Positions 19,023-36,096 of a stretch of 64,000 nucleotides of DNA are shown here, in pieces. Within the stretch, counting starts at the first letter, position 1. Every line of letters starts with the position of its first letter. Origin of the DNA: Candidatus Moraniibacteriota bacterium (GTDB taxonomy: Bacteria > Patescibacteriota > Minisyncoccia > Moranbacterales > GWC2-37-73); assembly GCA_036845785.1 (NCBI GenBank), contig DAIUDF010000001.1, forward strand, positions 33,221 to 97,220, in the 5' to 3' direction. The translations under genes and the position numbers were made by a program. The notes beneath the pieces are model-generated. The model had not been told where the DNA came from. It saw only the letters and a list, made by a program, of their open reading frames with translations, and did no database searches.

Positions 19023-20216
19023 CTATTTGATGATTTTGGTGGCTGTTCCGGCTCCGACTGTTTTGCCTCCTTCGCGGATAGCGAAGCGCATTCCTTCTTC
19101 CATAGCTACCGGTGCAATCAATTTAATATTGATGTGCACAGTGTCTCCAGGCATAACCATTTCAGTTCCTTCTGGCAGAATAACTTCTCCGGTAACATCA
19201 GTTGTGCGGATATAGAACTGTGGTTTGTATCCTTTGAAGAAAGGAGTGTGTCTGCCGCCTTCTTCTTTGGTCAGAATATATATTTCACCTTCAAATTCAG
19301 TGTGAGGAGTGATTGAACCCGGTTTAGCCAAAACTTGTCCGCGCTCAACATCTTCTTTCTTAACACCGCGCAGCAGAAGTCCGGCATTGTCTCCAGCTTG
19401 TCCTTTGTCCAAAGATTTGTTGAACATTTCGATTCCGGTTACAACAGTCTTGGTAGTTGGCTTAAGACCAACAATTTCAACTTCTTCATTGATGCTGATG
19501 GTTCCGCGTTCAATTCTTCCGGTTACTACAGTTCCGCGGCCTTCAATTGAGAAAATATCTTCAATCGGCATCAAAAGAGGCTTGTCAGTGTCACGAACCG
19601 GTTCAGGAATTTTTGAGTCCAGTGCGGCAATCAAATCATAGATAGGTTTAGCATCAGCGTCTTCAGCTCCCTTAACTTCCAAAGCTTTGACAGCTGATCC
19701 ACGGATAACAGCGGCATTGTCGCCATCAAATTCATATTTGGAAAGCAGTTCGCGAACTTCTGTTTCAACCAAATCGATAAGTTCAGGATCATCAACCATG
19801 TCAACTTTGTTGATGAAAACAACGATCGCAGGCACGCCTACTTGTTTAGCCAAAAGGATGTGTTCGCGAGTCTGAGGCATAGGACCATCAGTTGCGCTCA
19901 CAACCAAAATTGCTCCGTCCATCTGAGCGGCGCCGGTAATCATGTTTTTGATGTAGTCAGCATGGCCAGGACAGTCAACATGAGCATAATGACGGGTGTC
20001 GGATTCATATTCGCAGTGTGAAGTTGCGATAGTGATTCCGCGTTCCTTTTCTTCTGGAGCGTTGTCGATTTCATTAACGCCTTTTTCCTTGGCAAAACCT
20101 TTAAGGCTCAGACAATGAAGAATAGCCGCGGTCAAAGTTGTTTTGCCGTGGTCAACATGTCCGATTGTGCCGACATTTACATGTGGCTTTGAACGTTCAA
20201 ATTTTTCTGCTGCCAT
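19023..20216 (-). CDS. tuf: elongation factor Tu
   Basis: [18 protein letters not shown] and NKVD motifs. Start at [12 protein letters not shown]. Confidence 0.95.
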
Positions 20217-20407
20217 ATTGATTTTTTTCGCGGCCAAAGGTTTTTTACTTTGGCACCACGCGATTAATTAAGATAATTTAATTATAAAATTATTGCATCT
20301 GTTTACTATACACTAAATTCCTTTTTCAGGCAAATTTAAAAAATCCGTCTGTGGAAAATTCAATACATGACTCATTCTACACGACCTATAAAATCTGTCA
20401 ACCCCGC

Positions 20408-20473
20408 ACTAACTTTAGGCAAGTGTACAACACTGGATTGCTTTCAGCAAGCCTAAAGTTAGTGCGGGGTCAA
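20408..20473. repeat. hairpin element family E with 12-bp terminal inverted repeats CCCCGCACTAAC/GTTAGTGCGGGG, two copies (20408-20473 and 59746-59810)
   Basis: The arms are identical and the interiors unrelated. One copy sits at the tuf-side edge of the island. Confidence 0.7.
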
Positions 20474-20612
20474 GCCCCCGCCAATTTGGCACTTTTGTCT
20501 TACCTTAGCCAATAACCAACCCTCAGAAAACCTAGGAATTTGAAGATTTTACTCACTATATCCACATTTTTAATACGTAGCGAAGTAAGTATTAAATTAT
20601 TCCGCCCAGAAA

Positions 20613-21032
20613 TTAGATTTTTTTTCTGAAGAAAATTGAAACAATGAAAATTAAAATGAAAAAGATCGAACCCATGACGCATGTCGGCAGGCCGAAGAAA
20701 TATGCGCTCGGTCCATTTTCAAAAAACAAGGACAATTCTCCCCAAGAAAAATAGCCGGCAAAAAGAACTCCCAAAAATGAAAACAAAAATAAAAGATTGG
20801 CCAAACATTTTGTCGCCTGTTCCTTGAAAAAAAGGACGACGGAAAAAATAAAAAGGAGGCAGAACATGACAAAGCCGTAGTAGCAGGCCGGAAAGCCCAG
20901 GAACAGCGGGCAAGTTTCCCCGAAAGCGCAGACAGATGAAAACATTTTGACTCCGCTCATATAGCCGGAAAACAATACTCCGCCCAGCGAAGCCAGCAAA
21001 AAGAAAATTTTAAAATTTTTGTATTTATCCAT
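20613..21032 (-). CDS. hypothetical polytopic membrane protein with internal 2-TM duplication
   Basis: Two repeated LGGVLFSGYMSG / LGVLFAGYFSWG modules, each followed by Cys residues. Start set at MDKYKNF (cat at 21030-21032). Confidence 0.5.
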   Translation of the reverse strand: MDKYKNFKIFFLLASLGGVLFSGYMSGVKMFSSVCAFGETCPLFLGFPACYYGFVMFCLLFIFSVVLFFKEQATKCLANLLFLFSFLGVLFAGYFSWGELSLFFENGPSAYFFGLPTCVMGSIFFILIFIVSIFFRKKI

Positions 21033-21093
21033 TTTATTAAATAAATAATTAATTAAGTAATTATTTCTGATCCGTTTTTCTTTTTTTACAATT

Positions 21094-21588
21094 TTATATT
21101 TCGGCAAAAAATATCATATAATTATGCCCGAATTTCTTGGCGCATTTCGGACAATAGGCATAGTGGATGTAATAATCCTTGGCCTTTTTCCCTGTCTCGG
21201 CCAGATATCCATCCATAACTTTGATAAATTTAGGAATATCATTATAGCCGCCATCAAAAACTCTGGAGATAAAATTTCCGGAAATCACAACGTTGTTTTC
21301 ATCCGGAACGTCTTTTTCCACCGCTACATATATCTCGCCCCTAAAAGGCGTCGGATCGCGGAACAATATCAGGGTGTCTTTTTTGTCCGGCGCGCCCGCC
21401 CCGACCTTTTCCACAGCCGTCCACATTCTGGTTATTTTTTTGCCGATCATCGGCGGAAAAGGGATATGGAAAAACTCCGGCATGGAATCTTTGATGAATT
21501 TTTTATTGTCCCAGCTCAATGTTTGCTTGTCCCATTTTTCTACACTAAATTCGGGACAGCATTCTTGTTTTTGATTTTCGTTGTTCAT
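21094..21588 (-). CDS. hypothetical protein
   Basis: 164-aa ORF. Its conserved GGCGGGGTAAGTAATTAAT leader motif is shared with two other island genes. No confident domain was recognised. Confidence 0.45.
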   Translation of the reverse strand: MNNENQKQECCPEFSVEKWDKQTLSWDNKKFIKDSMPEFFHIPFPPMIGKKITRMWTAVEKVGAGAPDKKDTLILFRDPTPFRGEIYVAVEKDVPDENNVVISGNFISRVFDGGYNDIPKFIKVMDGYLAETGKKAKDYYIHYAYCPKCAKKFGHNYMIFFAEI

Positions 21589-21686
21589 AGTTTTATTAAT
21601 TACGTAATTAATTACTTACCCCGTCAATTATATCTGATCAGAAAATGATTATCTTTATTTTTCCTTTGCTCGATTTTATTTTTTAT

Positions 21687-22964
21687 CTATTTTTTCGCTC
21701 TTTCTGATTGTTTAATTTTATTTATTATTACTTGCATTTTATCCCAATCTTTAAATTTTTTCCTAGTTAAAAAAAATTTTTTTAATTCTTCCTCGGGATT
21801 TACCGCTAAACTATATTTTTTGTGTGTCATTCTTTTTAAAATGCAGTGGATAATATTTCTTTCTGAAGAATAGGTCAGGGATGCCGGCATTTTTAAAATT
21901 GCATTTCTTGTTTCTTTAATATCATTGTCAAAAATCATGGTTAGAGTTTGAAAATTTCTTTTAGAAGTTTGGTAAGACTGATGGAAAAGCGATGGCTGTC
22001 TTAATGCAATTTTAATAAAATCTTCTTTGGAAAGTCCTAATATCTCGACTGAATTTTCAATATTTTTAACAATAGTCATGGGAGATTGATAAAAAAGCTG
22101 TGGATGCTTTAACGCAACTTCCAGAAATTCTTGTTTATCAATGCTTATAAGCTTTGATGTACTTTCAATATTATTATTTATCGTGCTTGGGTTAAGATAA
22201 AGAATTTGAGGAGCTTTAAGAGAGCTTTTTATAAACATCTCTTTTTTGATCCCTAATAATTCGGCCGAATTTTCAGCATTATTATTTATAGTTTCGGGAT
22301 ATTGAACTAAGAGCGATGGTCTTTTAAGAGCTGCGTTGAGAAATTTTTCTCTCGAAATACCCAACAATTTAGCTGAATTTTCGATATTACTATTGATAGT
22401 TTCTGGGAGCATACCAAAAAGTGACGGGTGTTTAATTGCAGCTTTAATAAATTCTTCTTCTGATATTCCTATTAGCTTAGCTGAATTTTTAATATTACTA
22501 TCGATAGTTTCTGGAGATTGACAAAAAAGTTGTGGCGTTTTAAATATGCACTTTTTCCATTCATCTGCTGACACATTAAAATTACGCATACTTCGCAAGA
22601 AATTATATTTGTATTTGTCTGATTTAAGAGTTTCCGGACGACATCTAAGAATTGCTTCGTTTGAAATAATCTTATTTACTTCATCATCTGTGAAAACAAT
22701 TTTTTGTTCTTCTTTTTGATTATCGGCAGGAATAGTTATTTTAAATTCGCAAAAAACTTTCCTCAGCTCAATTTTCCTTCTAGCTTTTGGACCTTGTTGA
22801 CCATTTTCTTGTCTATCTCTTTCTTCTTGCAGCGTTATTTCAGATTGAGCATAATCATCTCTGGAAGGCTCTCCGCTTTCATTTCTTTTCAGCTTCAAAT
22901 CAAGAGCTTTATCTCTTATTACATGTGCCTCATTTTCTGCTTTTTCAAACAAATACTTCTCCAT
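21687..22964 (-). CDS. tandem-repeat protein with about seven 36-aa mTERF-like repeats
   Basis: Repeats of the form F.KAA.KHPSLF.Q.PETINSNIENSAKLLGIS.EEF. The DNA shows matching 108-bp periodicity across 21950-22560. Confidence 0.6.
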   Translation of the reverse strand: MEKYLFEKAENEAHVIRDKALDLKLKRNESGEPSRDDYAQSEITLQEERDRQENGQQGPKARRKIELRKVFCEFKITIPADNQKEEQKIVFTDDEVNKIISNEAILRCRPETLKSDKYKYNFLRSMRNFNVSADEWKKCIFKTPQLFCQSPETIDSNIKNSAKLIGISEEEFIKAAIKHPSLFGMLPETINSNIENSAKLLGISREKFLNAALKRPSLLVQYPETINNNAENSAELLGIKKEMFIKSSLKAPQILYLNPSTINNNIESTSKLISIDKQEFLEVALKHPQLFYQSPMTIVKNIENSVEILGLSKEDFIKIALRQPSLFHQSYQTSKRNFQTLTMIFDNDIKETRNAILKMPASLTYSSERNIIHCILKRMTHKKYSLAVNPEEELKKFFLTRKKFKDWDKMQVIINKIKQSERAKK

Positions 22965-23014
22965 AAAAAATTTACTGTCTGTATTAATTACTTACTCCGC
23001 CAATCAGATTAATT

Positions 23015-23066
23015 ATACAATTCTTGGCTGTTTTTATTATATCACCAAATTAAAAAGGCCGATTTC
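23015..23066 (-). promoter_or_regulatory. conserved promoter/leader element F, two copies (23015-23066 and 24160-24215), with extended -10 TGATATAAT
   Basis: AATTATACAATTCTTGGCTGwTTTTATTATATCACCAAATTAAAAAGGCCG on the plus strand. The minus strand reads ttggTGaTATAATaaaa, then GGCGGGGTAAGTAATTAAT just before the ATG of the lipoprotein and repeat-protein genes. Confidence 0.45.
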
Positions 23067-23101
23067 ACATCCCCCTTCGGCATAAATTCAGGGGGATGTA
23101 A

Positions 23102-23374
23102 TCATTTTTTGCTAAAGAGACTTATCCGACGTTTTTCAACATAGACAATTTGCCACCATTTCTGGCCGATGAAATAGCCCGCAGCTACGCCCAAAAGCAG
23201 AAGGATGAAAGTTAGCATTGGCCAGACATATCCCCCGTTTCCAAGAATTGACGGGCCAGTACCTGATTTCAAAAGACTCTTAATATACCACAATTCCAAT
23301 CCGGCACGAGCAATCACCGAAAGCAGAATAAACAAAACAATGCTGGCAATTAAATATATTGTTTTTTTGGTCAT
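23102..23374 (-). CDS. small two-TM membrane protein
   Basis: 90 aa with two hydrophobic helices. Confidence 0.5.
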   Translation of the reverse strand: MTKKTIYLIASIVLFILLSVIARAGLELWYIKSLLKSGTGPSILGNGGYVWPMLTFILLLLGVAAGYFIGQKWWQIVYVEKRRISLFSKK

Positions 23375-23457
23375 AAATTTAATACCCTTCTTAATAATTA
23401 TAATTAATTTATACTTATTCCGGAATTCTTGAGAATACCGGAATAGTGTAATTTTGA

Positions 23458-24111
23458 TTATTTGTAATTTTTGATCGCTTCGCCTATCTTTATTGCAAAA
23501 TCAATGAATTTTCCGTTCTCAATCGTATTTTTTGAACTTGGCTTGATTGAAATAAATTTTTCCGGACTAAGTACAAAATAAATTTCACTGACAAGATCTC
23601 CTTGTGTAATTACTACATTATCCATAGGAATTTTAGGATTTTTTTCTACCTTATCTCCGGTCTGTTGATAAAAAAGTTTTTGATTTTCAATTTTTAAATA
23701 TTCCAGATTAAACAATAAATATTCCTTATCATTAAGATAATAGGAACAATTATAAAGACTTGCATATTTTGGCAGTTCGATTTTTACTACTTTTTGGCCT
23801 AAGGCATTTTCCACAAATTCTTTAGTAAACTGACCGCAGATATCTTCAACAATATAATAACTTTTGTCCTGACGACTTGGTTCTCCTGGATATTCCACAA
23901 AACAATTTTTAAGACGCTTTCCTGGTTCGCCATAACCTTCTATTGATACATTTTCTTTTTCGCAAGCTCCGTCTAAATTATCTTCAGTTGCTGGGGCTGA
24001 CGCTACACTTTCCGCATTATTATTTTTTTCAGCTTGATTGTTATTTGCACAACCGGAAAGAAAAATGGCTCCAACAATTAACATCGGCAGAATGATTATT
24101 TTTTTGTTCAT
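23458..24111 (-). CDS. putative lipoprotein
   Basis: Signal peptide with an LSGC lipobox. Confidence 0.55.
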   Translation of the reverse strand: MNKKIIILPMLIVGAIFLSGCANNNQAEKNNNAESVASAPATEDNLDGACEKENVSIEGYGEPGKRLKNCFVEYPGEPSRQDKSYYIVEDICGQFTKEFVENALGQKVVKIELPKYASLYNCSYYLNDKEYLLFNLEYLKIENQKLFYQQTGDKVEKNPKIPMDNVVITQGDLVSEIYFVLSPEKFISIKPSSKNTIENGKFIDFAIKIGEAIKNYK

Positions 24112-24265
24112 GGTTTTATTAAATAAATAATTAATTACTTACCCCGCCAAGCATGTTTAATTATACAATTCTTGGCTGATTTTATTATATCACCAAATTA
24201 AAAAGGCCGCTTTTAAACTTGTCTTGCGGCCTTTATAGATTGGAAAAATTTCCTTTTTCAACTCC

Positions 24266-24760
24266 TTACGTCCTTATAATCTTGTCTATAGCCATTTGCT
24301 CAGCGTTTTTGAGGATTTCCTCAATAAAAGGATCCCTGCGAAAAATGAGATGATCGGGCGTGTTATCGAAAACAAATGTTCTCCCAGTGAAAGGAAGAAA
24401 GGTTTCCCATCTATCCCCCTTAATCTGCATCGGGACTCCTCTCGTCGATTCAAGACCGCATTCTGCTGCAATTTTTTCTACCGCATCCCTACATTCAGCA
24501 GGGACGCTCATTACAGTCCAAATTTTTTTAGCCCAACGGATCGTGTGCATGAAAAAAAGCGCGCTCTGTTGGCTTTGCGGATTGAAATGCTTATGCTTCA
24601 CAGTCAGCATGCATTCCCTGATGCCAGGCGTATATGGTTCTTCTAATCCTACATACTGAATGAATCGCTTATTATTCAAAAGATCATTAAATTCTTCAGT
24701 CATAATGCCTATTGCCTGGGTTTTTGTTTCTTTTTTTAACAAGCTCTTCAATCGTATCAT
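24266..24760 (-). CDS. hypothetical protein
   Basis: 164-aa ORF with locally higher GC than its neighbours. No domain was recognised. Confidence 0.45.
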   Translation of the reverse strand: MIRLKSLLKKETKTQAIGIMTEEFNDLLNNKRFIQYVGLEEPYTPGIRECMLTVKHKHFNPQSQQSALFFMHTIRWAKKIWTVMSVPAECRDAVEKIAAECGLESTRGVPMQIKGDRWETFLPFTGRTFVFDNTPDHLIFRRDPFIEEILKNAEQMAIDKIIRT

Positions 24761-24895
24761 TTGAACCTCCTTTCATTAAATATTTGAGAGTTATTTTCTT
24801 TTTATAAGTTGTTAAAGAAGTGTTAAAAATATCACCACCTGTACATACCTAGGTACGCTCGCCCCGTAGCAAGCGAAGCTTTGCTTCTGGGGTAA

Positions 24896-25474
24896 TTAAT
24901 TATTTATTCTTTCAATCTCTTTTAACAAAAAATTTAAATCTTTTGACAATGGATTTCCTTTCCATCTTTTCAGGATTGATTTGATAGCCATTTGCTGATG
25001 ATTTAAGATTTTTTCTTTTGGCGCATTAAATCTGGCAAAAACTTCCTCTCTGTAACGATTATAATCATCCAACAATTCAGAAACGTTAGCAATAATATCA
25101 GCCGATTTAATTAGTAAAGAATCATGCGAAAAATTCTTTATGTGTTCCAATGCTTGCTTTTTCCTTTCCTCCCATGGTAATTTTTTCTCAATCTCTGTTA
25201 CACTCAAAACTCCTCTTGCAACTTTTTTACCGAATCTTTCTTCCAGCATTTTGGCATTTACTTTTTTCTGATCTATAGAATCCTCAATCGTATCGTGCAA
25301 AATTCCAGCCACAACTATGTCTTCTTTGGCTTTGATCAGTGAGAGGATAATCCCTACAGTTAATGGATGGGTTATATATGCGATATCTTTGCCTTTTCTT
25401 TTTTGCTTCTGATACACTTCGTGTGTTTTAGTGGCAAATTTTATCGCCTTTTGTATTTTTGGAGTATAGATCAT
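24896..25474 (-). CDS. HD-domain metal-dependent phosphohydrolase
   Basis: ITHPLTV...AGILHDTIED matches the HD motif. Confidence 0.7.
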   Translation of the reverse strand: MIYTPKIQKAIKFATKTHEVYQKQKRKGKDIAYITHPLTVGIILSLIKAKEDIVVAGILHDTIEDSIDQKKVNAKMLEERFGKKVARGVLSVTEIEKKLPWEERKKQALEHIKNFSHDSLLIKSADIIANVSELLDDYNRYREEVFARFNAPKEKILNHQQMAIKSILKRWKGNPLSKDLNFLLKEIERINN

Positions 25475-25571
25475 AATTTATTGTATACTTAGAATACTTT
25501 AAATTTTTTTGCATTCACCTCCCCCTTCGGCATAAATTCAGAGGTACGTAATTAATTACGTAAATTCAAAT

Positions 25572-26591
25572 TTATTCCTCATTATTTCTAATTCTTCCCC
25601 AATTTATTCTATCCAATTCTGGTTTTAATCTTGATACTAATAAATCTAATCTATCCAAAATTTCATTCACATCTTCTTGATCAAATTCAATTTTATTTGT
25701 TGTAGAATAAACATTATATAATTTTGACCAATTTTTGCCCCACTTAGCTTTTAACTTAAAAATTTTATCACTCTTAGATAAATCTTTTTGCACATTCTTC
25801 ATTATTTTAAGTAATTTATTTCTTCTTTTCTTAGTAAAATCATGAATCAAATGGGATTTAGCAAATTCAACATGAAAAGCTATTTCAAACTGCGCTTTAT
25901 CGCTTGCTTTAGTTATTTTTTTAGAAGTTATTTCAAAATGTAAAAATGGATTTCCTATTTTTTCTTTAATTTGAATCATATGTCTAAACTGAGTCCTGTT
26001 TTCCATTAGTCCTTCAGCAATTGGCTGATTTAAAAATTTATTTAGAATTTCTTGTAAAATTTGCTCTCTGGTATAAATTTTTCTCAACTTAATTAGCAGC
26101 GGTTTAGCTGGAATACCTAATTCACATTTTTTACTATTCGCAAAAAAAACTCCTATAGAAGATCCGAAATCACCTAGATTTTTTAACATTAATTTAGCCG
26201 AAGGTAATAATTTGTCCTTTTTTTCTAGAGGTAAAGTTACAAAAAAACAAGCACGGATGGCTTTATTTTCAAGAAAAGTTGAAACATCTTCTAGCTCCAA
26301 TCTTTCTTGTTGAGTTATTTTTTCAAGAAATTCATAACCTTTCTCCTGGATAACTGACATATAGGCAATAAGCTGGCCAACTGCATGGCCGATCGAAGCA
26401 ACATTTCCAGATCTTTTCCCTTCACTAATATAGAAACATTTTTCGTTTTGATTATAGGCCAGAACATCAAGGAAGCCAGCTGAAAATTTAAATTCCGTAA
26501 CAGAAAAATTACATTTGAATTTACTTTTGAAATAATTTTTAGTCGGCTGATTTAATTGTTTGTCTTCTGGGTTGTTCATAAGTTCTGGCAA
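25572..26591 (-). CDS. hypothetical protein with N-terminal PD-(D/E)xK nuclease-like motif
   Basis: FLDVLAY...ISEGK fits a D...ExK arrangement. It is the last gene of a tightly packed six-gene operon. Confidence 0.45.
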   Translation of the reverse strand: MPELMNNPEDKQLNQPTKNYFKSKFKCNFSVTEFKFSAGFLDVLAYNQNEKCFYISEGKRSGNVASIGHAVGQLIAYMSVIQEKGYEFLEKITQQERLELEDVSTFLENKAIRACFFVTLPLEKKDKLLPSAKLMLKNLGDFGSSIGVFFANSKKCELGIPAKPLLIKLRKIYTREQILQEILNKFLNQPIAEGLMENRTQFRHMIQIKEKIGNPFLHFEITSKKITKASDKAQFEIAFHVEFAKSHLIHDFTKKRRNKLLKIMKNVQKDLSKSDKIFKLKAKWGKNWSKLYNVYSTTNKIEFDQEDVNEILDRLDLLVSRLKPELDRINWGRIRNNEE

Positions 26592-26607
26592 GTAATTAAT
26601 TACGTAA

Positions 26608-26793
26608 TTATCTATTATATTTTTTATTACAAGATGGACAATATTTCCAATTTCCTGTTATCTTAACACCACAAATACATTTTCTCATTCCATATCTCGC
26701 CTTATTTTCTTTTTGCACTTTTTCCCAGCAGTCATTACAATATATACTTTTTATATACTTTGATTGATAACCACATTTTCTACATTTTCCCAT
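26608..26793 (-). CDS. small zinc-ribbon protein
   Basis: 61 aa containing CxxC...CxxC...CxC...CxxC. Confidence 0.5.
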   Translation of the reverse strand: MGKCRKCGYQSKYIKSIYCNDCWEKVQKENKARYGMRKCICGVKITGNWKYCPSCNKKYNR

Positions 26794-26808
26794 AAATTTT
26801 TTATCCTA

Positions 26809-27912
26809 TTATTTCCCCGATTTAGTTCGATTGTCTTGTTTGCAAAGCATCTGACAATTTTCAGCAATTGTTTTTCCGCCCTCATGCCAAGGTTTGATAT
26901 GATCAGCTTCCATCTCGCCTATTTTAAAATGTTCACTGCATTTCGGACAAATTCCATTTTGTCTTTCATAAGCTTCACGCTTCATTTTGTCAGTAAACGC
27001 CCGAATCGAAAGATATTTTTCCTGTCTGGTTAAAACATACGGATAAATTCCGGATTTTTTCGTCACATCTTCATCCTGCATTAAATCTTTGATTTCGGTT
27101 TCAAGTTTTTTAGTATCTAGTTTTTTATCTTTAAATTCATTATATAATTCACCCCACTGCACGTTTTTCATTTCTTTGCGATAATTTATGAAAGTTTTTC
27201 TGGCCCACTCAATAACATTTTGAAAATATTCCCACAATTCTTCGGCATTTTTGTCGTGCTGATGTTTGGCCATATAGTCTTCAATTTTTCCATCATTTAT
27301 CCATGAAATTGCAGTTTCTAAATATTCTTGCCGAATTGGCGAACCACTAACTAACCCACCTCCATCATTGGCCAGAAGATAAGCTGCGCAATTTGATTTA
27401 CTGAATTTTAGTTTTGCATCAGAAAGCCACGGACCAGTATAGACAGCATTTCTAAGTTCTTGGTCAGTCAATTTCTCGCCGGCAATATTAATAATTTTAA
27501 ACCAATCTAATCGCTCTTTGTCACTGCCTTCGCAAAAATAGATCATGAGTTCATAATTCAGAATCTGTTCTTGTTCTTCTTTGGTTAGATTGTGAAACGC
27601 AGCTAGTCTACCGTTGAATTCAACAGAATAATTACCTTCTTTATATTCCGCAATACTAATTGTTCTTTGTTGACCATCAAGCACTTCAAAATTTCCCTGA
27701 TCAGTTTTGACCCAATACATTACATTAAGTGGAAAACTGTTTTTGATTGTTTCAATCACAGCATCGCGCTGTTTGCCGGTGTATACAAACTCCCGTTGAT
27801 ATTTCGGACGAATATCCAACTTGCCGCCATAAGCCACCACGCCTTCTTCGTGACTGTCCTTATAGCCATTGATAACGTCCCGCACCGAAATTCTTTGTAG
27901 TTCAATTTTCAT
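26809..27912 (-). CDS. DUF262 (ParB-like, DGQQR) plus HNH nuclease, GmrSD/SspE-like defense nuclease candidate
   Basis: VLDGQQRTISI is the DUF262 hallmark. The C-terminal ADHIKPWHEGGKTIAENCQMLCKQDNRTK is an HNH motif. Confidence 0.75.
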   Translation of the reverse strand: MKIELQRISVRDVINGYKDSHEEGVVAYGGKLDIRPKYQREFVYTGKQRDAVIETIKNSFPLNVMYWVKTDQGNFEVLDGQQRTISIAEYKEGNYSVEFNGRLAAFHNLTKEEQEQILNYELMIYFCEGSDKERLDWFKIINIAGEKLTDQELRNAVYTGPWLSDAKLKFSKSNCAAYLLANDGGGLVSGSPIRQEYLETAISWINDGKIEDYMAKHQHDKNAEELWEYFQNVIEWARKTFINYRKEMKNVQWGELYNEFKDKKLDTKKLETEIKDLMQDEDVTKKSGIYPYVLTRQEKYLSIRAFTDKMKREAYERQNGICPKCSEHFKIGEMEADHIKPWHEGGKTIAENCQMLCKQDNRTKSGK

Positions 27913-27918
27913 ATTATT

Positions 27919-28413
27919 TTAATTTTTGAAATAATTGTTATCAATAATAAATTGGTTGACTTTTTGACTTATTTTTTCAATAACTTCTAATTTTGGCATT
28001 TTTTTATATCCATACATCATTTCTAATAACATTTCATCTGAAAAATAATCAAATCCTTTTTTAAAATATAATTTATTAACATTTTTAAGATTTTTTTTGT
28101 CTTTCTTTGAAAAAATATTAATAAATAATAATTCAAATTCTTTAATTACTTTCTCTAAATTATGCTTGATACTTATTGCTAAAAAACGTTTTTTAGACTT
28201 AGTGCATTCTTTGCTTAAAATTGCTGCTTTCAATCCCCTTTCTATTGAAGATAAATACATAGAATATTTAGCTAACGAAAAATGCTTTTGCTTGTATGAT
28301 TCTGCCGAATTATGAAAATCGTCTGAAATTTTGGCTAGCATATAAGGAGTAATCGAAATAGCTAAAGGATCGCATTTTATTAAACAATGTTTATTCTTAA
28401 CTTGTAGTTTCAT
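27919..28413 (-). CDS. hypothetical protein (operon member)
   Basis: 164 aa, very AT-rich, 6 bp downstream of the preceding gene. Confidence 0.45.
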   Translation of the reverse strand: MKLQVKNKHCLIKCDPLAISITPYMLAKISDDFHNSAESYKQKHFSLAKYSMYLSSIERGLKAAILSKECTKSKKRFLAISIKHNLEKVIKEFELLFINIFSKKDKKNLKNVNKLYFKKGFDYFSDEMLLEMMYGYKKMPKLEVIEKISQKVNQFIIDNNYFKN

Positions 28414-28451
28414 AAAATTCCTTATTATTTTTTTATTTTTAATTAAAATAT

Positions 28452-28730
28452 CTAATCAATTTTAAATAGAGATTTAAAATTATCTACTAAATCAATTTTA
28501 TAAATGAACGCTGTGACAGATAAAATAAGTGCTAATATTGAGATTATTAAAGATGCTAATGAAATTTTTTTCTGATAACCAGTTATATGCTTATTCATTT
28601 CTAATTGCAGTCTATTTGAATGGCTTAGCCATAAGCCGCATTTTTTACATTCGGAAACCCCTGGCCCATCTCTTCCATCATAAGTTAAAATTCTCCAATC
28701 ATGCTTACAATTTAGTTGATCTTTTGACAT
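28452..28730 (-). CDS. small zinc-ribbon protein with C-terminal TM helix
   Basis: CKHDW...CKKCG followed by a hydrophobic helix. Confidence 0.45.
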   Translation of the reverse strand: MSKDQLNCKHDWRILTYDGRDGPGVSECKKCGLWLSHSNRLQLEMNKHITGYQKKISLASLIISILALILSVTAFIYKIDLVDNFKSLFKID

Positions 28731-28753
28731 AGATATTTTTAATTATCGGACAA

Positions 28754-29818
28754 CTATTTTTTCACTTTCTTATTTTTAATTAATATACGTCGAAATAACA
28801 TTTTTCCATTTATAGTAAAGTCTTTATCTCCATTTTTTCCTGTATATCTATCTAATCCTATTATTTCAAATTGACTAGGATTATGATAATTAAGAAAAGT
28901 AATTGGCACACCCATTACTCCATCATAATCCATAGGAATATCAATATATCTATTTACATTAATCCCATTATAATTATCATATTTTAAATATTCTTTAGGG
29001 TTATATTTTTTATATAATGTGAGATCTTTGTGACGACTAGCAACATCAAGATTGGTATACCAATTAACACTTCCCATGCTGAAATATTTCACTCCGTTAA
29101 CAATTTTCTTCCTCGATTCCGTAGGAATATCATAATCCATTGGGACTTGAAACCATTTTGTTCCACCATTATCATATCCAAGCCAAACTTTATTTTCTTT
29201 TATCAAAGGAAAAAATTCTTTATAAATCACTGCGCCTTGCTGACCTAATATTAAAAAATTTTTATTATGTTTTACTAATTGATCTACATATTCCCTAAAC
29301 AATGAAAACGGCGGATTAGTGACAACCATGTCCGCTTGTTTTAACAGCTCTATACTTTCTTGACTTCTAAAATCCCCTTCTCCCTGGAGCGGCGCCCATT
29401 CATTATTTTTATTGTCTTTGAGTTGCTGGGCAATATCATTCAAATCAAAAGCTCCGTTATTATCAAGATCACCAACTTCATTAATAATAAATTTGTTAGC
29501 AGTTGTTTTTGGGCGGCCCTTTTTTACTGTAAGTGTTTTGTCATCGCCAAATAGGCTAAGTTGAGTGTTGGCAATCGGCGATGGCTTATAGCTGGTAGCC
29601 ATAAGTTTTTTCAAACCCAAAGCATTGAAATTTGATGCAAAATATTTGAAAAAATTACTTTCAAACGGATCGTCGCAATTACAATAAACCACTTTCCCAC
29701 GAAACTGGTCTTTATAATGCATGAGTTCCTTTTCAATATCAACCAGCTGAGTGTAAAACTCATCTTTTTTGGCCTTGTTTGCCTTGTGCAAGTTTTTATT
29801 CGACGATTTATTTTCCAT
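28754..29818 (-). CDS. N6-adenine DNA methyltransferase (NPPF motif, gamma-type order)
   Basis: DEFYTQ N-terminal motif, CNCDDPFESNFF (motif I-like), and VVTNPPF (motif IV). Confidence 0.7.
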   Translation of the reverse strand: MENKSSNKNLHKANKAKKDEFYTQLVDIEKELMHYKDQFRGKVVYCNCDDPFESNFFKYFASNFNALGLKKLMATSYKPSPIANTQLSLFGDDKTLTVKKGRPKTTANKFIINEVGDLDNNGAFDLNDIAQQLKDNKNNEWAPLQGEGDFRSQESIELLKQADMVVTNPPFSLFREYVDQLVKHNKNFLILGQQGAVIYKEFFPLIKENKVWLGYDNGGTKWFQVPMDYDIPTESRKKIVNGVKYFSMGSVNWYTNLDVASRHKDLTLYKKYNPKEYLKYDNYNGINVNRYIDIPMDYDGVMGVPITFLNYHNPSQFEIIGLDRYTGKNGDKDFTINGKMLFRRILIKNKKVKK

Positions 29819-29994
29819 AATTTTATAAAAACTAATTTTCCTTTAAATAAAGCAATTTTTCTTGATTTTTGAAAATTATCCACAGGGGCTTGAAATAATT
29901 ATAAGAATATGGTAGTATCTATACATAGACAAGTAAATTCCTTATGCGTGGGGTTCCGGATGGTTCCTCTTAAATAGCGCATAAGGTTTTGTTT

Positions 29995-30633
29995 TTATGG
30001 GAATAATGGACTTTCTTCAACGATTTTCTGCCTTATTAAATTATAATAGCTCTCATCTCCTAATTCTTTTTTCTTATATATCGCCCAGCAAATAAAATCA
30101 ACCGCCTGCAAGCACTTTTCAGCTTCAGGTGTTTTTATTTTTACACAAATATCAAGTTTATGATTATTCTTAACCTGATTTTCTAAATAATTTTTAAAAT
30201 TATCATTAAGAAATCTGTTTGTTTCACGCCTAGAAGCTATTAAAATTATTGGCGAATCTAGTGAAATAAGTTTTTTGGTGAATATTCTATCCAATAATAT
30301 ATTAGAAACATAATTATAAAGGACGTGTTTTTCATCTCTGAGTTTGGTATATACTTTCGCCTTATTTAGATGTATGGAAAGAACTGAAATATCTTTTTCA
30401 TTTAGCATTCCCAATGTTTTTATAATTGTCTTTGGTTTTTCTTTGCAAGCATGCAAAATTCCGACATGCTTTTTAAGCTCCTTCTTGCTTAAATTTCTAG
30501 CAACTTTTTTAATTACTTTTTCTACAGGACCTTTATTTTTAACAAATAAAAAAGTAACCACAAAAAATTTTGAAGATTTCTTGTTCGAATCAAATCCTAA
30601 GTCTCCACTTTCATCCAAAAATATATATGCCAT
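29995..30633 (-). CDS. DUF3800 family protein
   Basis: MAYIFLDESGDLG N-terminal signature. Confidence 0.65.
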   Translation of the reverse strand: MAYIFLDESGDLGFDSNKKSSKFFVVTFLFVKNKGPVEKVIKKVARNLSKKELKKHVGILHACKEKPKTIIKTLGMLNEKDISVLSIHLNKAKVYTKLRDEKHVLYNYVSNILLDRIFTKKLISLDSPIILIASRRETNRFLNDNFKNYLENQVKNNHKLDICVKIKTPEAEKCLQAVDFICWAIYKKKELGDESYYNLIRQKIVEESPLFP

Positions 30634-30750
30634 TTTTTATTTTCCCCAATCCACGTAAAACAATTTCATTATCACGTGGCTGTGCTTTAATTATTTTTTT
30701 GAATAATAATCCTTAATCATCAGCCCACCCCGGTTAAATACGATTTGAGC

Positions 30751-31809
30751 CTATTTTCTAAAAACATAGGCGGAGGCGGGACCTTTGCCTACTTGTTTTA
30801 TTGACCCGATTTTTTTGAGTTTTTGAAGATGCAACTGAGCTGTCCTCTTGGGACAATTCAGAATATCAACCACATCGTTCACGTTTATTTTTCCAAGCTT
30901 ATCCAAAAAATCCAAAATTTTCATCTGATCCTTGTCCAGATAGATTTGCGAATTAACATCCGCATCAATTTTCATGGCGGAAAGCGAGATTATTTTGTTT
31001 TTGACATTGTCAATTTCCTCTTTGAAACCTTTGGAGAAATATTCCAGCCATAAAGTGAAATCAGTTTTTCTTTCATCATAAGTCTTGCCTATATTGATAG
31101 CTTTATAATATCGTTGTCTATCTTTGTTGTAATAATCTTCCAAAGCAAAAAGTTTTCTGAAGTCATAGCCCCGCTTATAGAGAATAAGAGTGGCCAACGC
31201 CCTGGCTGTCCTGCCATTGCCATCATTGAATGGATGGATGGCAGCAATTTCCTGATGGGCTATGCCAGCCACAATGATCGGGCTAGTGTCTTTTTTCTTA
31301 CTATCTTCTATCCAAGAAATAAGATCAGCGCAAAGTTTCGGAACTTTCTTGGCATCCGGGCCTGTATACATAACCTCATTAGGAAAGCCTAAGCGCCTTC
31401 TGACGATATAGACCGGACCTTTTCTGTAGTGTCCTGACGATTCCTCATCCAATGTTTTGTCTGTAACTAATTTATGTATTTTAAGCAAAACTTTTTCGGT
31501 AATCGCCTGCTTTTTTTTGACGACTTGCTCGATATATTTCAAAGCATTGAGATAATTTTGCACTTCAAAAATTTCTCTCTGGGGAGCATCCACTTTTTTC
31601 CGGCCAACTAAAGCTTCAACTTCGTGCATATTGAGCTGGTTGCCTTCAATGGCAGTTGAGCTATGAGTCATCCTGATCAAAGCTTGCCGGCGCAATTTCA
31701 GCTCATTTTTAGGAAGAATCTTGGCTCGCTCAATAACTGCCTTGGCCTCAGCCACCGCAGTCAACATTTTTACAATATTGTCAGTAATTTTATATTTTGG
31801 ATTAAACAT
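30751..31809 (-). CDS. fic: Fic-family protein (AMPylator-type) with C-terminal wHTH
   Basis: HPFNDGNGRTARA matches the HxFx(D/E)GNGRxxR Fic motif. Confidence 0.85.
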   Translation of the reverse strand: MFNPKYKITDNIVKMLTAVAEAKAVIERAKILPKNELKLRRQALIRMTHSSTAIEGNQLNMHEVEALVGRKKVDAPQREIFEVQNYLNALKYIEQVVKKKQAITEKVLLKIHKLVTDKTLDEESSGHYRKGPVYIVRRRLGFPNEVMYTGPDAKKVPKLCADLISWIEDSKKKDTSPIIVAGIAHQEIAAIHPFNDGNGRTARALATLILYKRGYDFRKLFALEDYYNKDRQRYYKAINIGKTYDERKTDFTLWLEYFSKGFKEEIDNVKNKIISLSAMKIDADVNSQIYLDKDQMKILDFLDKLGKINVNDVVDILNCPKRTAQLHLQKLKKIGSIKQVGKGPASAYVFRK

Positions 31810-31910
31810 ATCGATATAGAAAGTATAGCATGTTTTTGATAATCACGCAATAATCGCGCAAAGAATCGCGCAAAGTTTTTTTCGCCCACTTTCGGAATTC
31901 TATATTTATT

Positions 31911-31985
31911 ATTTTTTTGAATAATAATCCTTAATCATCAGCCCGCCCCAGTTAAATATCGCTTCGCTATTTAACGGGGTAAACC
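31911..31985. repeat. palindromic element family G (ccccGTTAAATA...TATTTAACgggg). Copies at 30688-30750 (degenerate), 31911-31985, 32724-32800, 33260-33320, 42481-42540 and 48313-48362 (inside comEC)
   Basis: Three copies share the upstream TTTTTTGAATAATAATCCTTAATCATCAGCCCGCCCC block plus a 12-bp-stem hairpin. All six carry the GTTAAAT/ATTTAAC arms. Confidence 0.8.
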
Positions 31986-32165
31986 TTATCTTTTTTTCCA
32001 GTCCCTTATTACAAAACCGCCCTTAATTTTTTTAACGGTTATTTTTTGCCGCTCCTTCCACCCCAGTTCCCTAACAACTTCAATAGGCAGAGTTAAACCG
32101 ATTGAGTGTTTTCCAATTTTTGTTAATTTTCGCACATTTTTTTCGTTTGATTTTTTGTTTGCCAT
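31986..32165 (-). CDS. AbrB/MazE/SpoVT-type swapped-hairpin small DNA-binding protein (antitoxin-like), 59 aa
   Basis: Complement translates to MANKKSNEKNVRKLTKIGKHSIGLTLPIEVVRELGWKERQKITVKKIKGGFVIRDWKKR. It is absent from the ORF track, presumably because it is under 60 aa. Confidence 0.6.
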   Translation of the reverse strand: MANKKSNEKNVRKLTKIGKHSIGLTLPIEVVRELGWKERQKITVKKIKGGFVIRDWKKR

Positions 32166-32199
32166 ATTTTTTTGTTGCTACTTATAATTCTAATAAAAT

Positions 32200-32646
32200 T
32201 TATCGAACCTTTGCGAAAAGATAAACATCATAATATTTCCCGTTTTTGCAGACTTCTTTCCTTAATATTCCCTCCAACTTAAATTTATTCTTCTCCAAAA
32301 CTCTTGCCGATGCTTTATTCGGGAGATACACCTTTGCTGTAACTCTTTTTAATTTTAATTTGTCAAAACATAGCTTCACCAGCTCTCTTGTGACCTCGGT
32401 AATCAAACCTTTGCCCCAATGCTTTTTTGCCAGCCAGTAACCGATCTCCGCCTGATGCCCGTTTCTATGTATTCCGCAACTGCCAGCAACTTCACCTTCA
32501 ATTTCAATGGCAAGGTTTACCCTGTCCTTCCTTTTTAGGTTAAGTGCTTTTTTCAGAAAAATATTCGCTTCTTTGGATCCGTAAGGATACGGCACTACTG
32601 ACATATAGCGGCCAATGTCGGGATCATTTATATTTTTTATCAGCAC
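32200..32646 (-). CDS. GNAT N-acetyltransferase (RimJ/RimL-like)
   Basis: GIHRNGHQAEIGYWLAKKHWGKGL...ARVLEKNKFKLEG acetyl-CoA-binding region. Confidence 0.8.
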   Translation of the reverse strand: MLIKNINDPDIGRYMSVVPYPYGSKEANIFLKKALNLKRKDRVNLAIEIEGEVAGSCGIHRNGHQAEIGYWLAKKHWGKGLITEVTRELVKLCFDKLKLKRVTAKVYLPNKASARVLEKNKFKLEGILRKEVCKNGKYYDVYLFAKVR

Positions 32647-32783
32647 ATCCTTATCTGTTTTTTTGTAATTTCTGATTATAAACCGCTTGGTTTTGATCGG
32701 CTTGATTTTCGTATATTTATGTTAATTATTTTTTGAATAATAATCCTTAATCATCAGCCCGCCCCCGGTTAAATATCGCTTCG

Positions 32784-33224
32784 CTATTTAACAGGGTAAA
32801 TCTTCCTTACATTTTCTTTGTTTGGTTCTTCGTTTGGTTCTTTGTTTTCCTTACGTCTTCCCCTGGATTCAAGCTCTAGCACAACTGCTTCATAGTACGC
32901 AGGATGACTTTTTATTTTAGTTTCATCTGCAGCTATTATGATATCCATCAATTCTATACTTGATGCATCATGCACAAGAGCTCTGCGTTTTTGAACATTT
33001 TCAGAACTTATAGCACCTGGGCTTGAATGCCTCAAACTAATCAGGGTTTCAACTACCCATTCCTTATTTTCTAAGTATTTTTTACATTTTTCATCTAAAA
33101 AAGCTTTCTCTTCAGCTGAAAGTTTATATTTTTTATCACTCGTATTTCTTGTTTCTTCTTGATTAGCTTTTTTTATTTCTGCTTTTCGACCCGATGGAAC
33201 CGGGAATTGTATTAATTCTCCCAT
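32784..33224 (-). CDS. hypothetical protein (cassette)
   Basis: 146-aa ORF bounded by palindromic repeat copies. Confidence 0.4.
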   Translation of the reverse strand: MGELIQFPVPSGRKAEIKKANQEETRNTSDKKYKLSAEEKAFLDEKCKKYLENKEWVVETLISLRHSSPGAISSENVQKRRALVHDASSIELMDIIIAADETKIKSHPAYYEAVVLELESRGRRKENKEPNEEPNKENVRKIYPVK

Positions 33225-33349
33225 AATTTTATTTTATTAAATAATTTATTTTTTACTTTTAAAATCTCTCACTACCAACGCACCCCCAGTTAAATATCGC
33301 TTCACTATTTAACGGGGCAAGCGTACTTCAATTCTACGCCTAAAAATCC

Positions 33350-33396
33350 CCCTTAGCAAAAGAAAAAGGCTTGGCGACACAATCGTCACCAAGCCT
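33350..33396 (-). terminator. intrinsic terminator after 33409..33828
   Basis: ggcttggcgacacaatcgtcaccaagcc hairpin followed by a T-run on the minus strand. Confidence 0.6.
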
Positions 33397-33408
33397 TCGG
33401 TTTATTTG

Positions 33409-33828
33409 TTACGGAAAATCTATAAGACTCTCCACTTTTCCCTTGAGATAATTCAGGCCCTTTTCATCAATGAAGACGTTTGATTCTTTATCAAACATGG
33501 CAATCCAATCTTCAGGGTATTTGAAAGCAGCAAGTTTTTCCAGAGCTTCTTTCTCTTCAGGACTGCCCTTTTTGGTTTCCTGATAAGCCAAAAGTGTCTC
33601 TTCGACATCTTTGGCTTTATCCAGCATTTTTTTGAGAATAATTTTGAGAAGGCGTTCCCGGTATTTGTCTTTTTCATAAAAACGTACAACTTTGGTATAT
33701 ATGCCCTCCCAATCGTTGAAATCGAATTTGTCTTTGGCTTCTTTTGAAAGTTTGCCTAGATACATGGTACGCGTCCGGCTCACTCCAACTTTGCGTGCAA
33801 ATTTTTCAAATGGTATTTTATTATCCAC
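33409..33828 (-). CDS. hypothetical protein with possible N-terminal HTH
   Basis: FEKFARKVGVSRTRT is HTH-like. An intrinsic terminator lies just downstream. Confidence 0.45.
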   Translation of the reverse strand: MDNKIPFEKFARKVGVSRTRTMYLGKLSKEAKDKFDFNDWEGIYTKVVRFYEKDKYRERLLKIILKKMLDKAKDVEETLLAYQETKKGSPEEKEALEKLAAFKYPEDWIAMFDKESNVFIDEKGLNYLKGKVESLIDFP

Positions 33829-33961
33829 TTTAAACCCTCCAATATAGAATTGTTGCCTTCAATGTGATTAGAAATAAAAATTTTTACCCACCTCCTTGTG
33901 CTGAATTATCATCTTAAAGAACAACAGCAATATATTACATCTTCTATGACTGTTGTCAAGC

Positions 33962-33990
33962 CATAAAAAACAGCCCCGAAGGGCTGCTTT
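33962..33990 (-). terminator. intrinsic terminator after fusA (island boundary)
   Basis: cagccccgaagggctg hairpin followed by T6 on the minus strand. Confidence 0.65.
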
Positions 33991-34017
33991 TGTAAAAAGT
34001 ATTCAAATTTCTATAAG

Positions 34018-36096
34018 CTATTTTTTCGCAATGATTGTTTCTGCTACATTTTTCGGCACTTCGTTGTAGTGTGAAAATTCCATGTAGTAGCTGGCGCGGC
34101 CCTGGGTCATGCTTCTCATTTGGGTTGCGTAGCCGAACATGTTGGCCAGTGGCACTTCCGATTCAATTTCTTTGACGCGCGCATTGCCTTCTCCGCGATC
34201 ATTGATTTCTTTGATCATGCCACGACGAGAATTGATGTCGCCCACCACATCGCCCATAAATTGTTCCGGCGTCGTGACCACCATTTTCATAATCGGTTCA
34301 AGGATGACAGGTTCAGCTCTTTTCACTGCTTCTTGCACTGCCAATGATCCGGCAATTTTGAAAGCAGCTTCCGAAGAGTCAACTTCATGGAAAGATCCGT
34401 CATAGAGAGTTACTTTCACATCCACCATTGGATAGCCGGCCAAAACTCCGTTTTCCAAAGCTTCTTTGACGCCGACATTGATCGGTTTGATATATTCCTG
34501 CGGAATGACACCGCCTTTGATTTCGTCAATAAATTCATAACCCTTGCCTTTTTCTTCCTGCGGCTGCACTTTGAGCCAGCAATGTCCATATTGTCCGCGA
34601 CCGCCGGATTGACGGATATATTTTCCTTCAGCTTGAGCTTCTTTTTTGATTGTTTCACGATAGGCTACTTGCGGCTGGCCGATGTTGGCTTCAACATTGA
34701 ATTCCCTTTTCATACGATCGATGATGATGTCCAAATGAAGTTCGCCCATGCCGGAAATGATTGTCTGGCCGCTTTCTTCATCCGTGCGCAGGCGGAGAGT
34801 CGGATCTTCACCGGAAAGTTTGCGAAGGGCAGTGCCCATTTTTTCCTGATCAGCTTTGGTCTTCGGTTCAACAGCAATGTCGATCACCGGTTCCGGGAAA
34901 ACGATATTTTCGAGCTGGATTTGTTTGTTTTCATCGCAAAGAGTGTCGCCTGTTGTTGTGTTTTTGAGTCCGACCAATGCGCCGATTCCTCCGGCTGAAA
35001 TTTCCTGAATTTCTTCACGATGATTGGCATGCATCTGCAAAATGCGTCCGATTCTTTCTTTTTCTCCGTTAGTAGCATTTATCACATATGAACCAGCTTT
35101 CAGCGTTCCTGAATAAACACGGAAAAATGTCAGCTGACCCACGAAAGGATCAGTGGCAACTTTGAAAGCCAGCGCCGCAAAAGGTTCTCCGTCATCAGCT
35201 TTTCTTTCAATTTCGCTTCCGTCTTTTGGATCAATGCCTTTGACAGGCGGAATATCAATCGGCGATGGCAGATAGTCAACCACGGCATCCAAAACTAATT
35301 GTACTCCTTTGTTGCGAAGAGCAGTTCCGGTCAAGACCGGCACAATTTTAACAGCAATCACAGCTTTTCTAAGTGCGGTTTTGAGTTCTTCAATGGAAAT
35401 TTCTTCGCCGTTCAAATATTTTTCTGTGAGCGCATCATCAGTCTCGGAAATTTTTTCCACCATTTTTTCGCGCATTTCTTTGGCTTTGTCCAAAAGTTCA
35501 GCTGGAATTTCAGCTTCCACGATTTTTTCTCCCATTTGGCCTTCGAAAGTGTAGGCTTTCATTTTGATAAGATCAACAACACCTCTAAATTCACTTCTTT
35601 CGCCAATTGGTATTTGAATTGCCACTGCGTTCGGAGTCAGACGATTCCAGATTGAATTCAAAACAAAATTAAAGTCCGCGCCTTCTTTGTCGATCTTATT
35701 TACGAAGCACATGCGCGGCACGTGATATTTGTCAGCTTGGCGCCATACTGTTTCAGATTGCGGTTCCACGCCTTCCTTGCCGTCAAAAATTACTACCGCA
35801 CCATCCAAAACGCGGAGTGATCTTTCCACTTCCACGGTAAAATCCACGTGTCCTGGCGTGTCAATGATGTTGATTTGGTGTTCTTTCCAAAAACAAGTGG
35901 TAGCCGCGCTGGTGATGGTGATGCCGCGTTCGCGTTCCTGTTCCATCCAGTCCATCGTTGCTTCGCCTTCATGCACTTCCCCGATTTTGTGGGTAATGCC
36001 GGTGTAGAACAAAATACGCTCGGTGGTGGTTGTTTTGCCGCCGTCAATATGAGCGATGATACCAATGTTTCTTAGTTTTGAAATATCCTTAGACAT
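34018..36096 (-). CDS. fusA: elongation factor G
   Basis: [17 protein letters not shown] and full five-domain EF-G. Confidence 0.95.

Follow-up and report, generated by a model that had tools for sequence, protein, structure and literature searches.

Prokaryotic mTERF-like tandem-repeat proteins were named pTERF by Hu et al. (Nucleic Acids Res 2024; PMC11417379), who list 46 homologues, mostly from Bacillota and with 3–11 units each. Sequence-specific binding of double-stranded DNA at nanomolar concentrations has been demonstrated for pTERF1 and pTERF2 only: pTERF1 (MBQ3414883.1, cluster label TR_35), encoded in a metagenome-assembled genome (MAG) of a rumen member of the Clostridia, binds ACTNNNAGTC with a dissociation constant of 1.87 nM, and pTERF2 binds a different motif (PMC11417379). 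The better known mTERF proteins are organellar. Human MTERF1 (PDB 3MVA and 3N6S) is nuclear-encoded and imported into mitochondria, and human MTERF3 (PDB 3M66), MTERF4 and the mitoribosomal proteins mS93, mL114 and mL121 act on organellar ribosomal RNA (rRNA) or in ribosome assembly. Here we analyse a 64,000-nucleotide stretch (the window) of contig DAIUDF010000001.1, from a Candidatus Moranbacteria MAG, which encodes on its minus strand an intact mTERF-like protein of 425 amino acids. This protein adds a member from a lineage of the candidate phyla radiation (CPR) to the recently named prokaryotic set; its type is already known, and neither the type nor the likely activity is unprecedented.

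The window protein is an mTERF-fold repeat protein, as three agreeing lines of evidence show: a Pfam match, sequence and profile matches in the PDB, and an AlphaFold2 model. Pfam family PF02536 (mTERF) is matched at 64.4 bits against a gathering cutoff of 23.1 (E = 1.1e-17), in two stretches spanning residues 201–384, and a Pfam scan of the whole protein turns up neither TPR nor Sel1 nor any further repeat family. Searched against the PDB as a single sequence, the protein gives a weak match to chains of human MTERF1 (E about 3e-3), and for a profile of 23 relatives human MTERF1 is the sole match (E = 8e-6); PF02536 itself is recovered in 14 of 23 members of the family at E ≤ 0.001. The AlphaFold2 model has a mean predicted local distance difference test score (pLDDT) of 86, rising to 92–98 across the repeats, and a predicted template-modelling score of 0.74. 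All 11 of its Foldseek matches in the PDB at E ≤ 1e-3 are mTERF proteins, DNA-bound MTERF1 included. The first-pass annotation, made from the letters of the sequence, had likened the repeats to mTERF and named structure prediction as the check; the likeness holds, and the prediction gives an mTERF fold and no TPR or Sel1 fold.

Other assignments were considered and rejected. A TPR, Sel1 or other solenoid is ruled out, with no Pfam match to such families and strong fold matches that are all mTERF. The protein does not belong with the TALE-like proteins, defined by two-helix units of 33–35 residues with repeat-variable diresidues and by structural similarity to TALEs. NCBIfam matches to VapB and BrnA antitoxins lie below threshold (24 and 16 bits, the cutoff being 60) and were taken as noise from the repeat helices, as were matches to HTH_8/Fis, ComX, RuvA_C and PrgI in relatives.

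Within the mTERF fold, the window protein is distinguished by its regularity. All eight units of the model are built as helix, short helix and long helix, and seven of them stand at exact 36-residue spacing. The five clear units start in register at residues 136, 172, 208, 244 and 280 and share 36–61% pairwise identity. The unit at residue 316 is half-degenerate, keeping the first half of the motif, and those at residues 100 and 352 are so degenerate in sequence that they are recognizable only as three-helix units in the model, where the two units of the C-terminal cap are H313–344 and H349–380. The earlier count of about seven tandem 36-residue repeats is thus a fair one. Self-identity of the protein at a lag of 36 is 0.398, compared with 0.071 ± 0.017 in shuffled sequences (n = 2,000; shuffle maximum 0.134). 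Among 136 family units P9, L11, F12, P16 and I19 are conserved, in a unit of 36 residues compared with about 30–32 for the mTERF motif. The solenoid of repeated three-helix units resembles those of solved mTERF proteins, but the units are far more regular than eukaryotic ones: those of MTERF1, which is 14–18% identical to the window protein, are irregular and interspersed, whereas here they are strictly tandem. Identity to MTERF3, MTERF4, mS93, mL114 and mL121 is 8–14%. The gene is also not that of a nuclear-encoded eukaryotic protein acting in an organelle: its place is on a bacterial contig, flanked by fusA and by tuf with the S10 operon.

The first-pass annotation had further proposed that the repeats are recently duplicated, because the DNA retains a 108-bp periodicity. 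The periodicity is present, with in-frame DNA identity of 0.59 at lag 108 compared with 0.29 ± 0.03 at other lags, but it is weak, and the repeat DNA is not young. Units are 53–65% identical as DNA, only about half of the residues identical between units share a codon, and Tandem Repeats Finder reports no array in the gene even at a minimum score of 30. Recent unit duplication in this gene is thereby ruled out; the 108-bp signal is accounted for by the conservation of the repeat protein sequence, and CPR-lineage orthologues hold the same 36-residue register. By contrast, a Minisyncoccia orthologue (L006, positions 491–734, MAG JBMFRD010000011.1) contains a 108-bp unit in 2.3 copies that are 97% identical (Tandem Repeats Finder score 467). 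This is a truly recent duplication, and unit duplication is therefore ongoing in the family.

The family itself far exceeds, in size and in spread, the 46 homologues listed in the one paper that names such prokaryotic proteins. When 1.84 billion cluster representatives (clusters at 50% identity) were searched exhaustively with a profile, 1,378 clusters matched at E ≤ 1e-3, of which 828 reach E ≤ 1e-10 and 396 reach E ≤ 1e-30. A word-indexed search had yielded 27 relatives, most already annotated as PF02536 and one named as a Micavibrio protein, and its repetition with a profile added almost nothing. Among 178 relatives fetched, proteins hold 2–11 units, the period is 36 residues in 86 and 39 in 72, and none has a period below 36. 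Positions A5, L6, K7, P9, L11, F12, P16, E17, T18 and N22 of the unit are conserved, whereas positions 13–15, 20–21, 24–26 and 28 vary. A scan of one genome per species, with a four-unit alignment as query, located genes in three alphaproteobacterial MAGs and in one from the Gammaproteobacteria, where the contig measures 3.3 Mb, in Gastranaerophilales, Minisyncoccia and Saccharibacteria, and in two further MAGs, one from rumen and one labelled Muribaculaceae. A tblastn search of isolate phages and plasmids found no mTERF-like relative.

The statement that mTERF-like proteins are essentially eukaryotic or organellar, made in the first-pass annotation and echoed by plant-oriented papers in which mTERFs are absent from prokaryotes (PMC12977773, 2026; bioRxiv 10.1101/2022.01.18.476766), is therefore out of date, given the description of pTERF in 2024 (PMC11417379) and the 1,378 clusters found here. 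The family provides material on the origin of organellar mTERFs. Its presence in several Alphaproteobacteria as well as in CPR bacteria, Melainabacteria and Gammaproteobacteria is the ground for a wider proposal that we consider doubtful: that the bacterial family with 36- or 39-residue units (at least 1,378 clusters) is the prokaryotic stock ancestral to organellar mTERFs rather than a set of recent captures from eukaryotes, that its regular units form a modular, re-programmable DNA-recognition array, and that the CPR subfamily supplies reduced genomes with one of their few dedicated regulators or terminators of transcription. The family is also material for asking whether such regular repeats can be re-programmed as DNA-binding tools.

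Within the family the window protein falls in a CPR subfamily. Two proteins (P0010 and P0079) and the loci from Minisyncoccia and Saccharibacteria are 28–38% identical to the window protein, share its N-terminal module and C-terminal cap, and differ by insertions or deletions of whole units. In a four-protein alignment the conserved columns of the N-terminal module are I89, F91, F122, N128 and W136; the charged N termini that precede it are variable in the orthologues too. The window holds an intact, conserved member in a CPR bacterium and defines a concrete subfamily for the study of DNA binding. CPR orthologues stand within different core clusters of genes: in a Saccharibacteria MAG the gene (L008, 5689–6799) lies between mraY and murD, and another CPR orthologue (L016, 10001–11287) lies between dnaA and rnpA/yidC. 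The mTERF-like gene appears to move among conserved operons.

Several of the longer relatives carry additional modules. Varied fusions are found among P0029, P0002–P0004, P0007, P0008, P0124, P0138, P0052 and P0042, including an N-terminal sigma-70 region 4 module and, by the names that the JGI gives, XRE-type helix–turn–helix (HTH) domains. The Sigma70_r4 match at the N terminus of P0029 scores 29.5 bits against a cutoff of 24.1, and P0124 and P0138 are named by the JGI 'transcriptional regulator with XRE-family HTH domain'. The same group contains a 1,602-residue protein with FG-GAP repeats and a 1,291-residue protein with two repeat arrays.

The published description of pTERF fits the window protein in most respects. 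Both are encoded in bacterial MAGs and consist of strictly tandem repeats of about 35 residues, both have mTERF motifs recognized by Pfam or InterPro inside the repeats, and the three-helix units of both resemble MTERF1 (3MVA) in AlphaFold2 models. On these grounds (prokaryotic origin, strict tandem units, mTERF motifs and 3MVA-like units) we would place the protein with those named pTERF, a likeness drawn from the published description. There are also differences. The unit here has 36 residues, and its prolines 9 and 16 are strongly conserved, whereas pTERF1 is stated to lack the proline and leucines that mark the mTERF motif (PMC11417379) and has a period one residue shorter if its label TR_35 is read as a 35-residue period. 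The window protein also comes from a CPR lineage (Moranbacteria) and a subfamily with N- and C-terminal modules of its own, whereas the published pTERFs are mainly from Bacillota. The difference in period and the missing pTERF1 proline may leave room for two related families.

With the repeat architecture, the mTERF fold, the family, the intact gene and its bacterial chromosomal context established, we favour on balance, by analogy with its characterized relatives, the view that the protein is a sequence-specific solenoid binding double-stranded DNA, acting inside the bacterium as a transcription regulator or roadblock. The product of the open reading frame (ORF) is an alpha-solenoid, probably cytoplasmic, of eight three-helix units, seven of them in strict 36-residue register. 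Judged from human MTERF1, pTERF1 and pTERF2, its curved array would wrap double-stranded DNA and read a short specific site, with the conserved residues of the unit building the scaffold and the variable positions setting specificity. TALE and TALE-like proteins (AvrBs3 and BurrH) offer a parallel, having tandem repeats of about 33–36 residues, a superhelix around DNA, and scaffold and variable positions; for the window protein the wrapping of DNA is proposed. In the cell it would serve as a regulator or as a roadblock or terminator at a few sites in the small Moranbacteria genome, which would make the gene one plausible regulator in a genome with few recognizable ones.

To our knowledge, every characterized mTERF-fold protein binds DNA or RNA, and it is for this reason that we infer a nucleic-acid ligand. 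The choice of DNA over RNA is suggested by the DNA binding of pTERF1 and pTERF2 together with the sigma and XRE fusions among relatives, and the regulatory role is likewise proposed from analogy. The protein as a whole is basic, with an isoelectric point (pI) of 9.28, which speaks for the proposed function. A number of observations weigh against this assignment. The fold alone cannot separate DNA from RNA binding, since the top structural match of the model is MTERF3 and several of the other matches are ribosome-bound mTERF proteins that contact RNA. The repeat region itself is only mildly basic, with a pI of 8.7 (26 lysines and arginines, 23 aspartates and glutamates), compared with 10.2 for residues 352–425. 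Gene neighbourhood is not conserved, so it gives no hint to targets: seven homologue look-ups and the CPR loci revealed no conserved synteny, the neighbours being ordinary bacterial genes. Lastly, the period presumed for pTERF1 (35 residues) differs from that found here, and no member with a 35-residue period occurs among the 178 relatives.

The main rival makes the protein an RNA-binding factor with a part in RNA processing or the biogenesis of ribosomes, its solenoid gripping rRNA in the manner of MTERF3, MTERF4 and the mitoribosomal mTERF-fold proteins. The structural matches just named and the translation genes that adjoin the locus speak for such a role, and we regard it as a minor but real possibility. 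The position beside translation genes is, however, not kept in the orthologues between mraY and murD or near dnaA, and the ribosomal association belongs to the organellar proteins, with nothing here to indicate one for the window protein. The sole prokaryotic mTERF-like proteins that have been tested bind double-stranded DNA (PMC11417379), the fusions of relatives with sigma region 4 or with HTH modules of the XRE type point to DNA and transcription, and the sporadic distribution of the family is a poor fit with core ribosome assembly.

Two further readings are less likely than the RNA-binding one. Alpha-solenoids often bind proteins, and the small net positive charge of the repeat region would suit a protein–protein scaffold that has an mTERF-like shape and no nucleic-acid ligand. 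We consider this improbable, in view of the ligands known for characterized mTERF-fold proteins and of profile and fold searches that return only mTERFs and not TPR, HEAT or Sel1 proteins. The two pTERFs studied, moreover, bind DNA (PMC11417379). Alternatively, the protein could be an effector that an episymbiotic CPR cell exports to interfere with the nucleic acids of its host; the first-pass annotation had suggested a nucleic-acid-binding effector or an island regulator. The source is indeed a CPR bacterium (Candidatus Moranbacteria), the gene sits in an accessory block of lower GC content with adjoining Fic, restriction–modification and HNH genes, the N terminus is charged and disordered in the model, and relatives occur in Micavibrio and small-genome Alphaproteobacteria. 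We nevertheless judge export very unlikely. As read from the sequence, the N terminus has no hydrophobic stretch resembling a signal peptide, secretion-system genes are absent nearby on the examined contigs, and nothing points to secretion. Relatives lie on the 3.3-Mb gammaproteobacterial contig and beside ordinary housekeeping genes, the phage and plasmid search was without a match, and many relatives carry sigma or XRE-type modules as endogenous regulators do.

A decaying pseudogene or an artefact of assembling a repetitive region, for which the repetitive sequence is the only argument and which had been raised at the outset as a way for the assignment to fail, is to all intents ruled out by the 425 unbroken codons from an ATG start, by the same protein, residue for residue, on eight contigs (up to 123.7 kb) from several samples and assemblers, by the high-confidence model and by the conservation of the N- and C-terminal modules in orthologues. 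In NCBI the identical protein carries the label 'hypothetical protein' and is assigned to a MAG of Candidatus Moranbacteria. Repeat number does not vary across the eight strain contigs compared, and the gene is present in a single copy in the window, a six-frame search with a hidden Markov model (HMM) matching exactly positions 22020–22559. The layout of the protein and of the elements around its gene is given in Table 1.

Table 1. Parts of the mTERF-like gene and associated elements in the window (positions are those of the 64,000-nucleotide stretch).
Feature	Positions	Strand	Basis or remark
ORF of complete mTERF-like (pTERF-type) helical repeat protein, 425 residues	21687–22964	−	ORF list; Pfam PF02536; identical protein on 8 contigs
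Residues 1–58, highly charged N-terminal segment	22791–22964	−	pLDDT 46–64 across the first six 10-residue blocks
Residues 59–135, N-terminal module kept in the CPR subfamily: helix, beta-hairpin, degenerate three-helix unit (residues 93–135)	22560–22790	−	Model, pLDDT 82–94; BLASTP
Residues 136–315, five canonical 36-residue units (108 bp each): helix, short helix, long helix	22020–22559	−	Identity matrices; HMM; pLDDT 92–98
Residues 316–387, two degenerate units with register kept, C-terminal solenoid cap	21804–22019	−	25–31% and 11–19% identity to core units; segment conserved in orthologues
Residues 388–425 and stop, basic C-terminal tail	21687–21803	−	pLDDT down to 43–67 at the end
Putative promoter/leader of the mTERF-like gene: two TATAAT boxes (one preceded by TG), motif GAGTAAGTAATTAAT	22981–23065	−	Repeat families; alignment
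Second copy of the element, upstream of the lipoprotein gene (23458–24111)	24128–24213	−	57 nt at 96% identity; alignment
Third, partial copy: TATAAT and GGGTAAGTAATTAAT, perfect palindrome GTAATTAATTAC; upstream of the hydrolase gene (21094–21588)	21605–21646	−	Motif count; alignment
Copies of motif GGGTAAGTAATTAAT	21607–21621, 22983–22997, 24130–24144	−	Each after a TATAAT box, ahead of one of three consecutive transcription units
GC-rich hairpin ACATCCCCC...GGGGGATGT after the ORF of a 90-residue membrane protein	23067–23099	−	Read from sequence; loop exceeds the limit of the scan, which therefore did not call it

The mTERF-like gene and the neighbouring lipoprotein gene have a candidate promoter or leader element in common, as had been noticed in the first pass. 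Positions 23009–23065 and 24157–24213 are 96% identical over 57 nt, the core of a similarity of about 85 nt that begins with CGGCCTTTTT, passes two TATAAT boxes and reaches GGCGGRGTAAGTAATTAAT at its other end, where the motif GGGTAAGTAATTAAT lies. Three copies of this motif in 2.6 kb, all on the minus strand, compare with a chance expectation of 0.27, and the element is present in all strain contigs. Its sequence suggests a promoter. A sigma-70 consensus scan, which requires a −35 box, does not call it and finds fewer sites than in shuffles, and an Rfam search for a leader returned no family; the only match, a small nucleolar RNA inside the lipoprotein gene (E = 0.25), was dismissed as chance. 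Since the element or its leader motif stands ahead of the mTERF-like, lipoprotein and hydrolase genes, the three units are probably co-regulated. The 12-nt palindrome within the motif may be an operator; nothing here shows the mTERF-like protein binding the element.

The hairpin that follows the membrane-protein ORF probably sets the unit upstream apart from the separate promoter of the mTERF-like gene. At 24193–24243, in the lipoprotein copy of the element, CGGCCTTTTT makes up the 3′ arm of a hairpin resembling a terminator (GGCCGC...GCGGCC and a T-run), whereas in the mTERF copy (23051–23065) it occurs without its 5′ partner. This suggests that the copy upstream of the mTERF-like gene arose by duplication of the region upstream of the lipoprotein gene.

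On the minus strand the order of genes is rpsL, rpsG, fusA (34018–36096), about 13.8 kb of accessory genes, tuf (19023–20237) and the S10 operon. The rpsL–rpsG–fusA–tuf–rpsJ cluster is usually contiguous, and here it is split between fusA and tuf by the block at 20238–34017, which has a GC content of 0.333 compared with 0.386 elsewhere in the window. The accessory genes encode, in order, an acetyltransferase, a Fic protein, a DUF3800 protein, an EcoRI-type methylase, a GmrSD_N–HNH protein, an HD protein, the lipoprotein, the 90-residue membrane protein, the mTERF-like protein, a PF20603 hydrolase and a VKOR-like protein. The block appears to be a defence or variable island that has entered the core (str) operon, and its low GC content (0.308 in the mTERF-like ORF) and the gene order place the mTERF-like gene at the edge of this defence-rich insertion.

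Directly downstream of the mTERF-like gene lies the PF20603 'bacterial hydrolase' gene. It overlaps by 14 nt a gene at 20613–21107, also on the minus strand, for a four-cysteine membrane protein whose VKOR match is just below threshold (26.1 bits against 27.5). The two genes probably form one operon behind the third leader copy.
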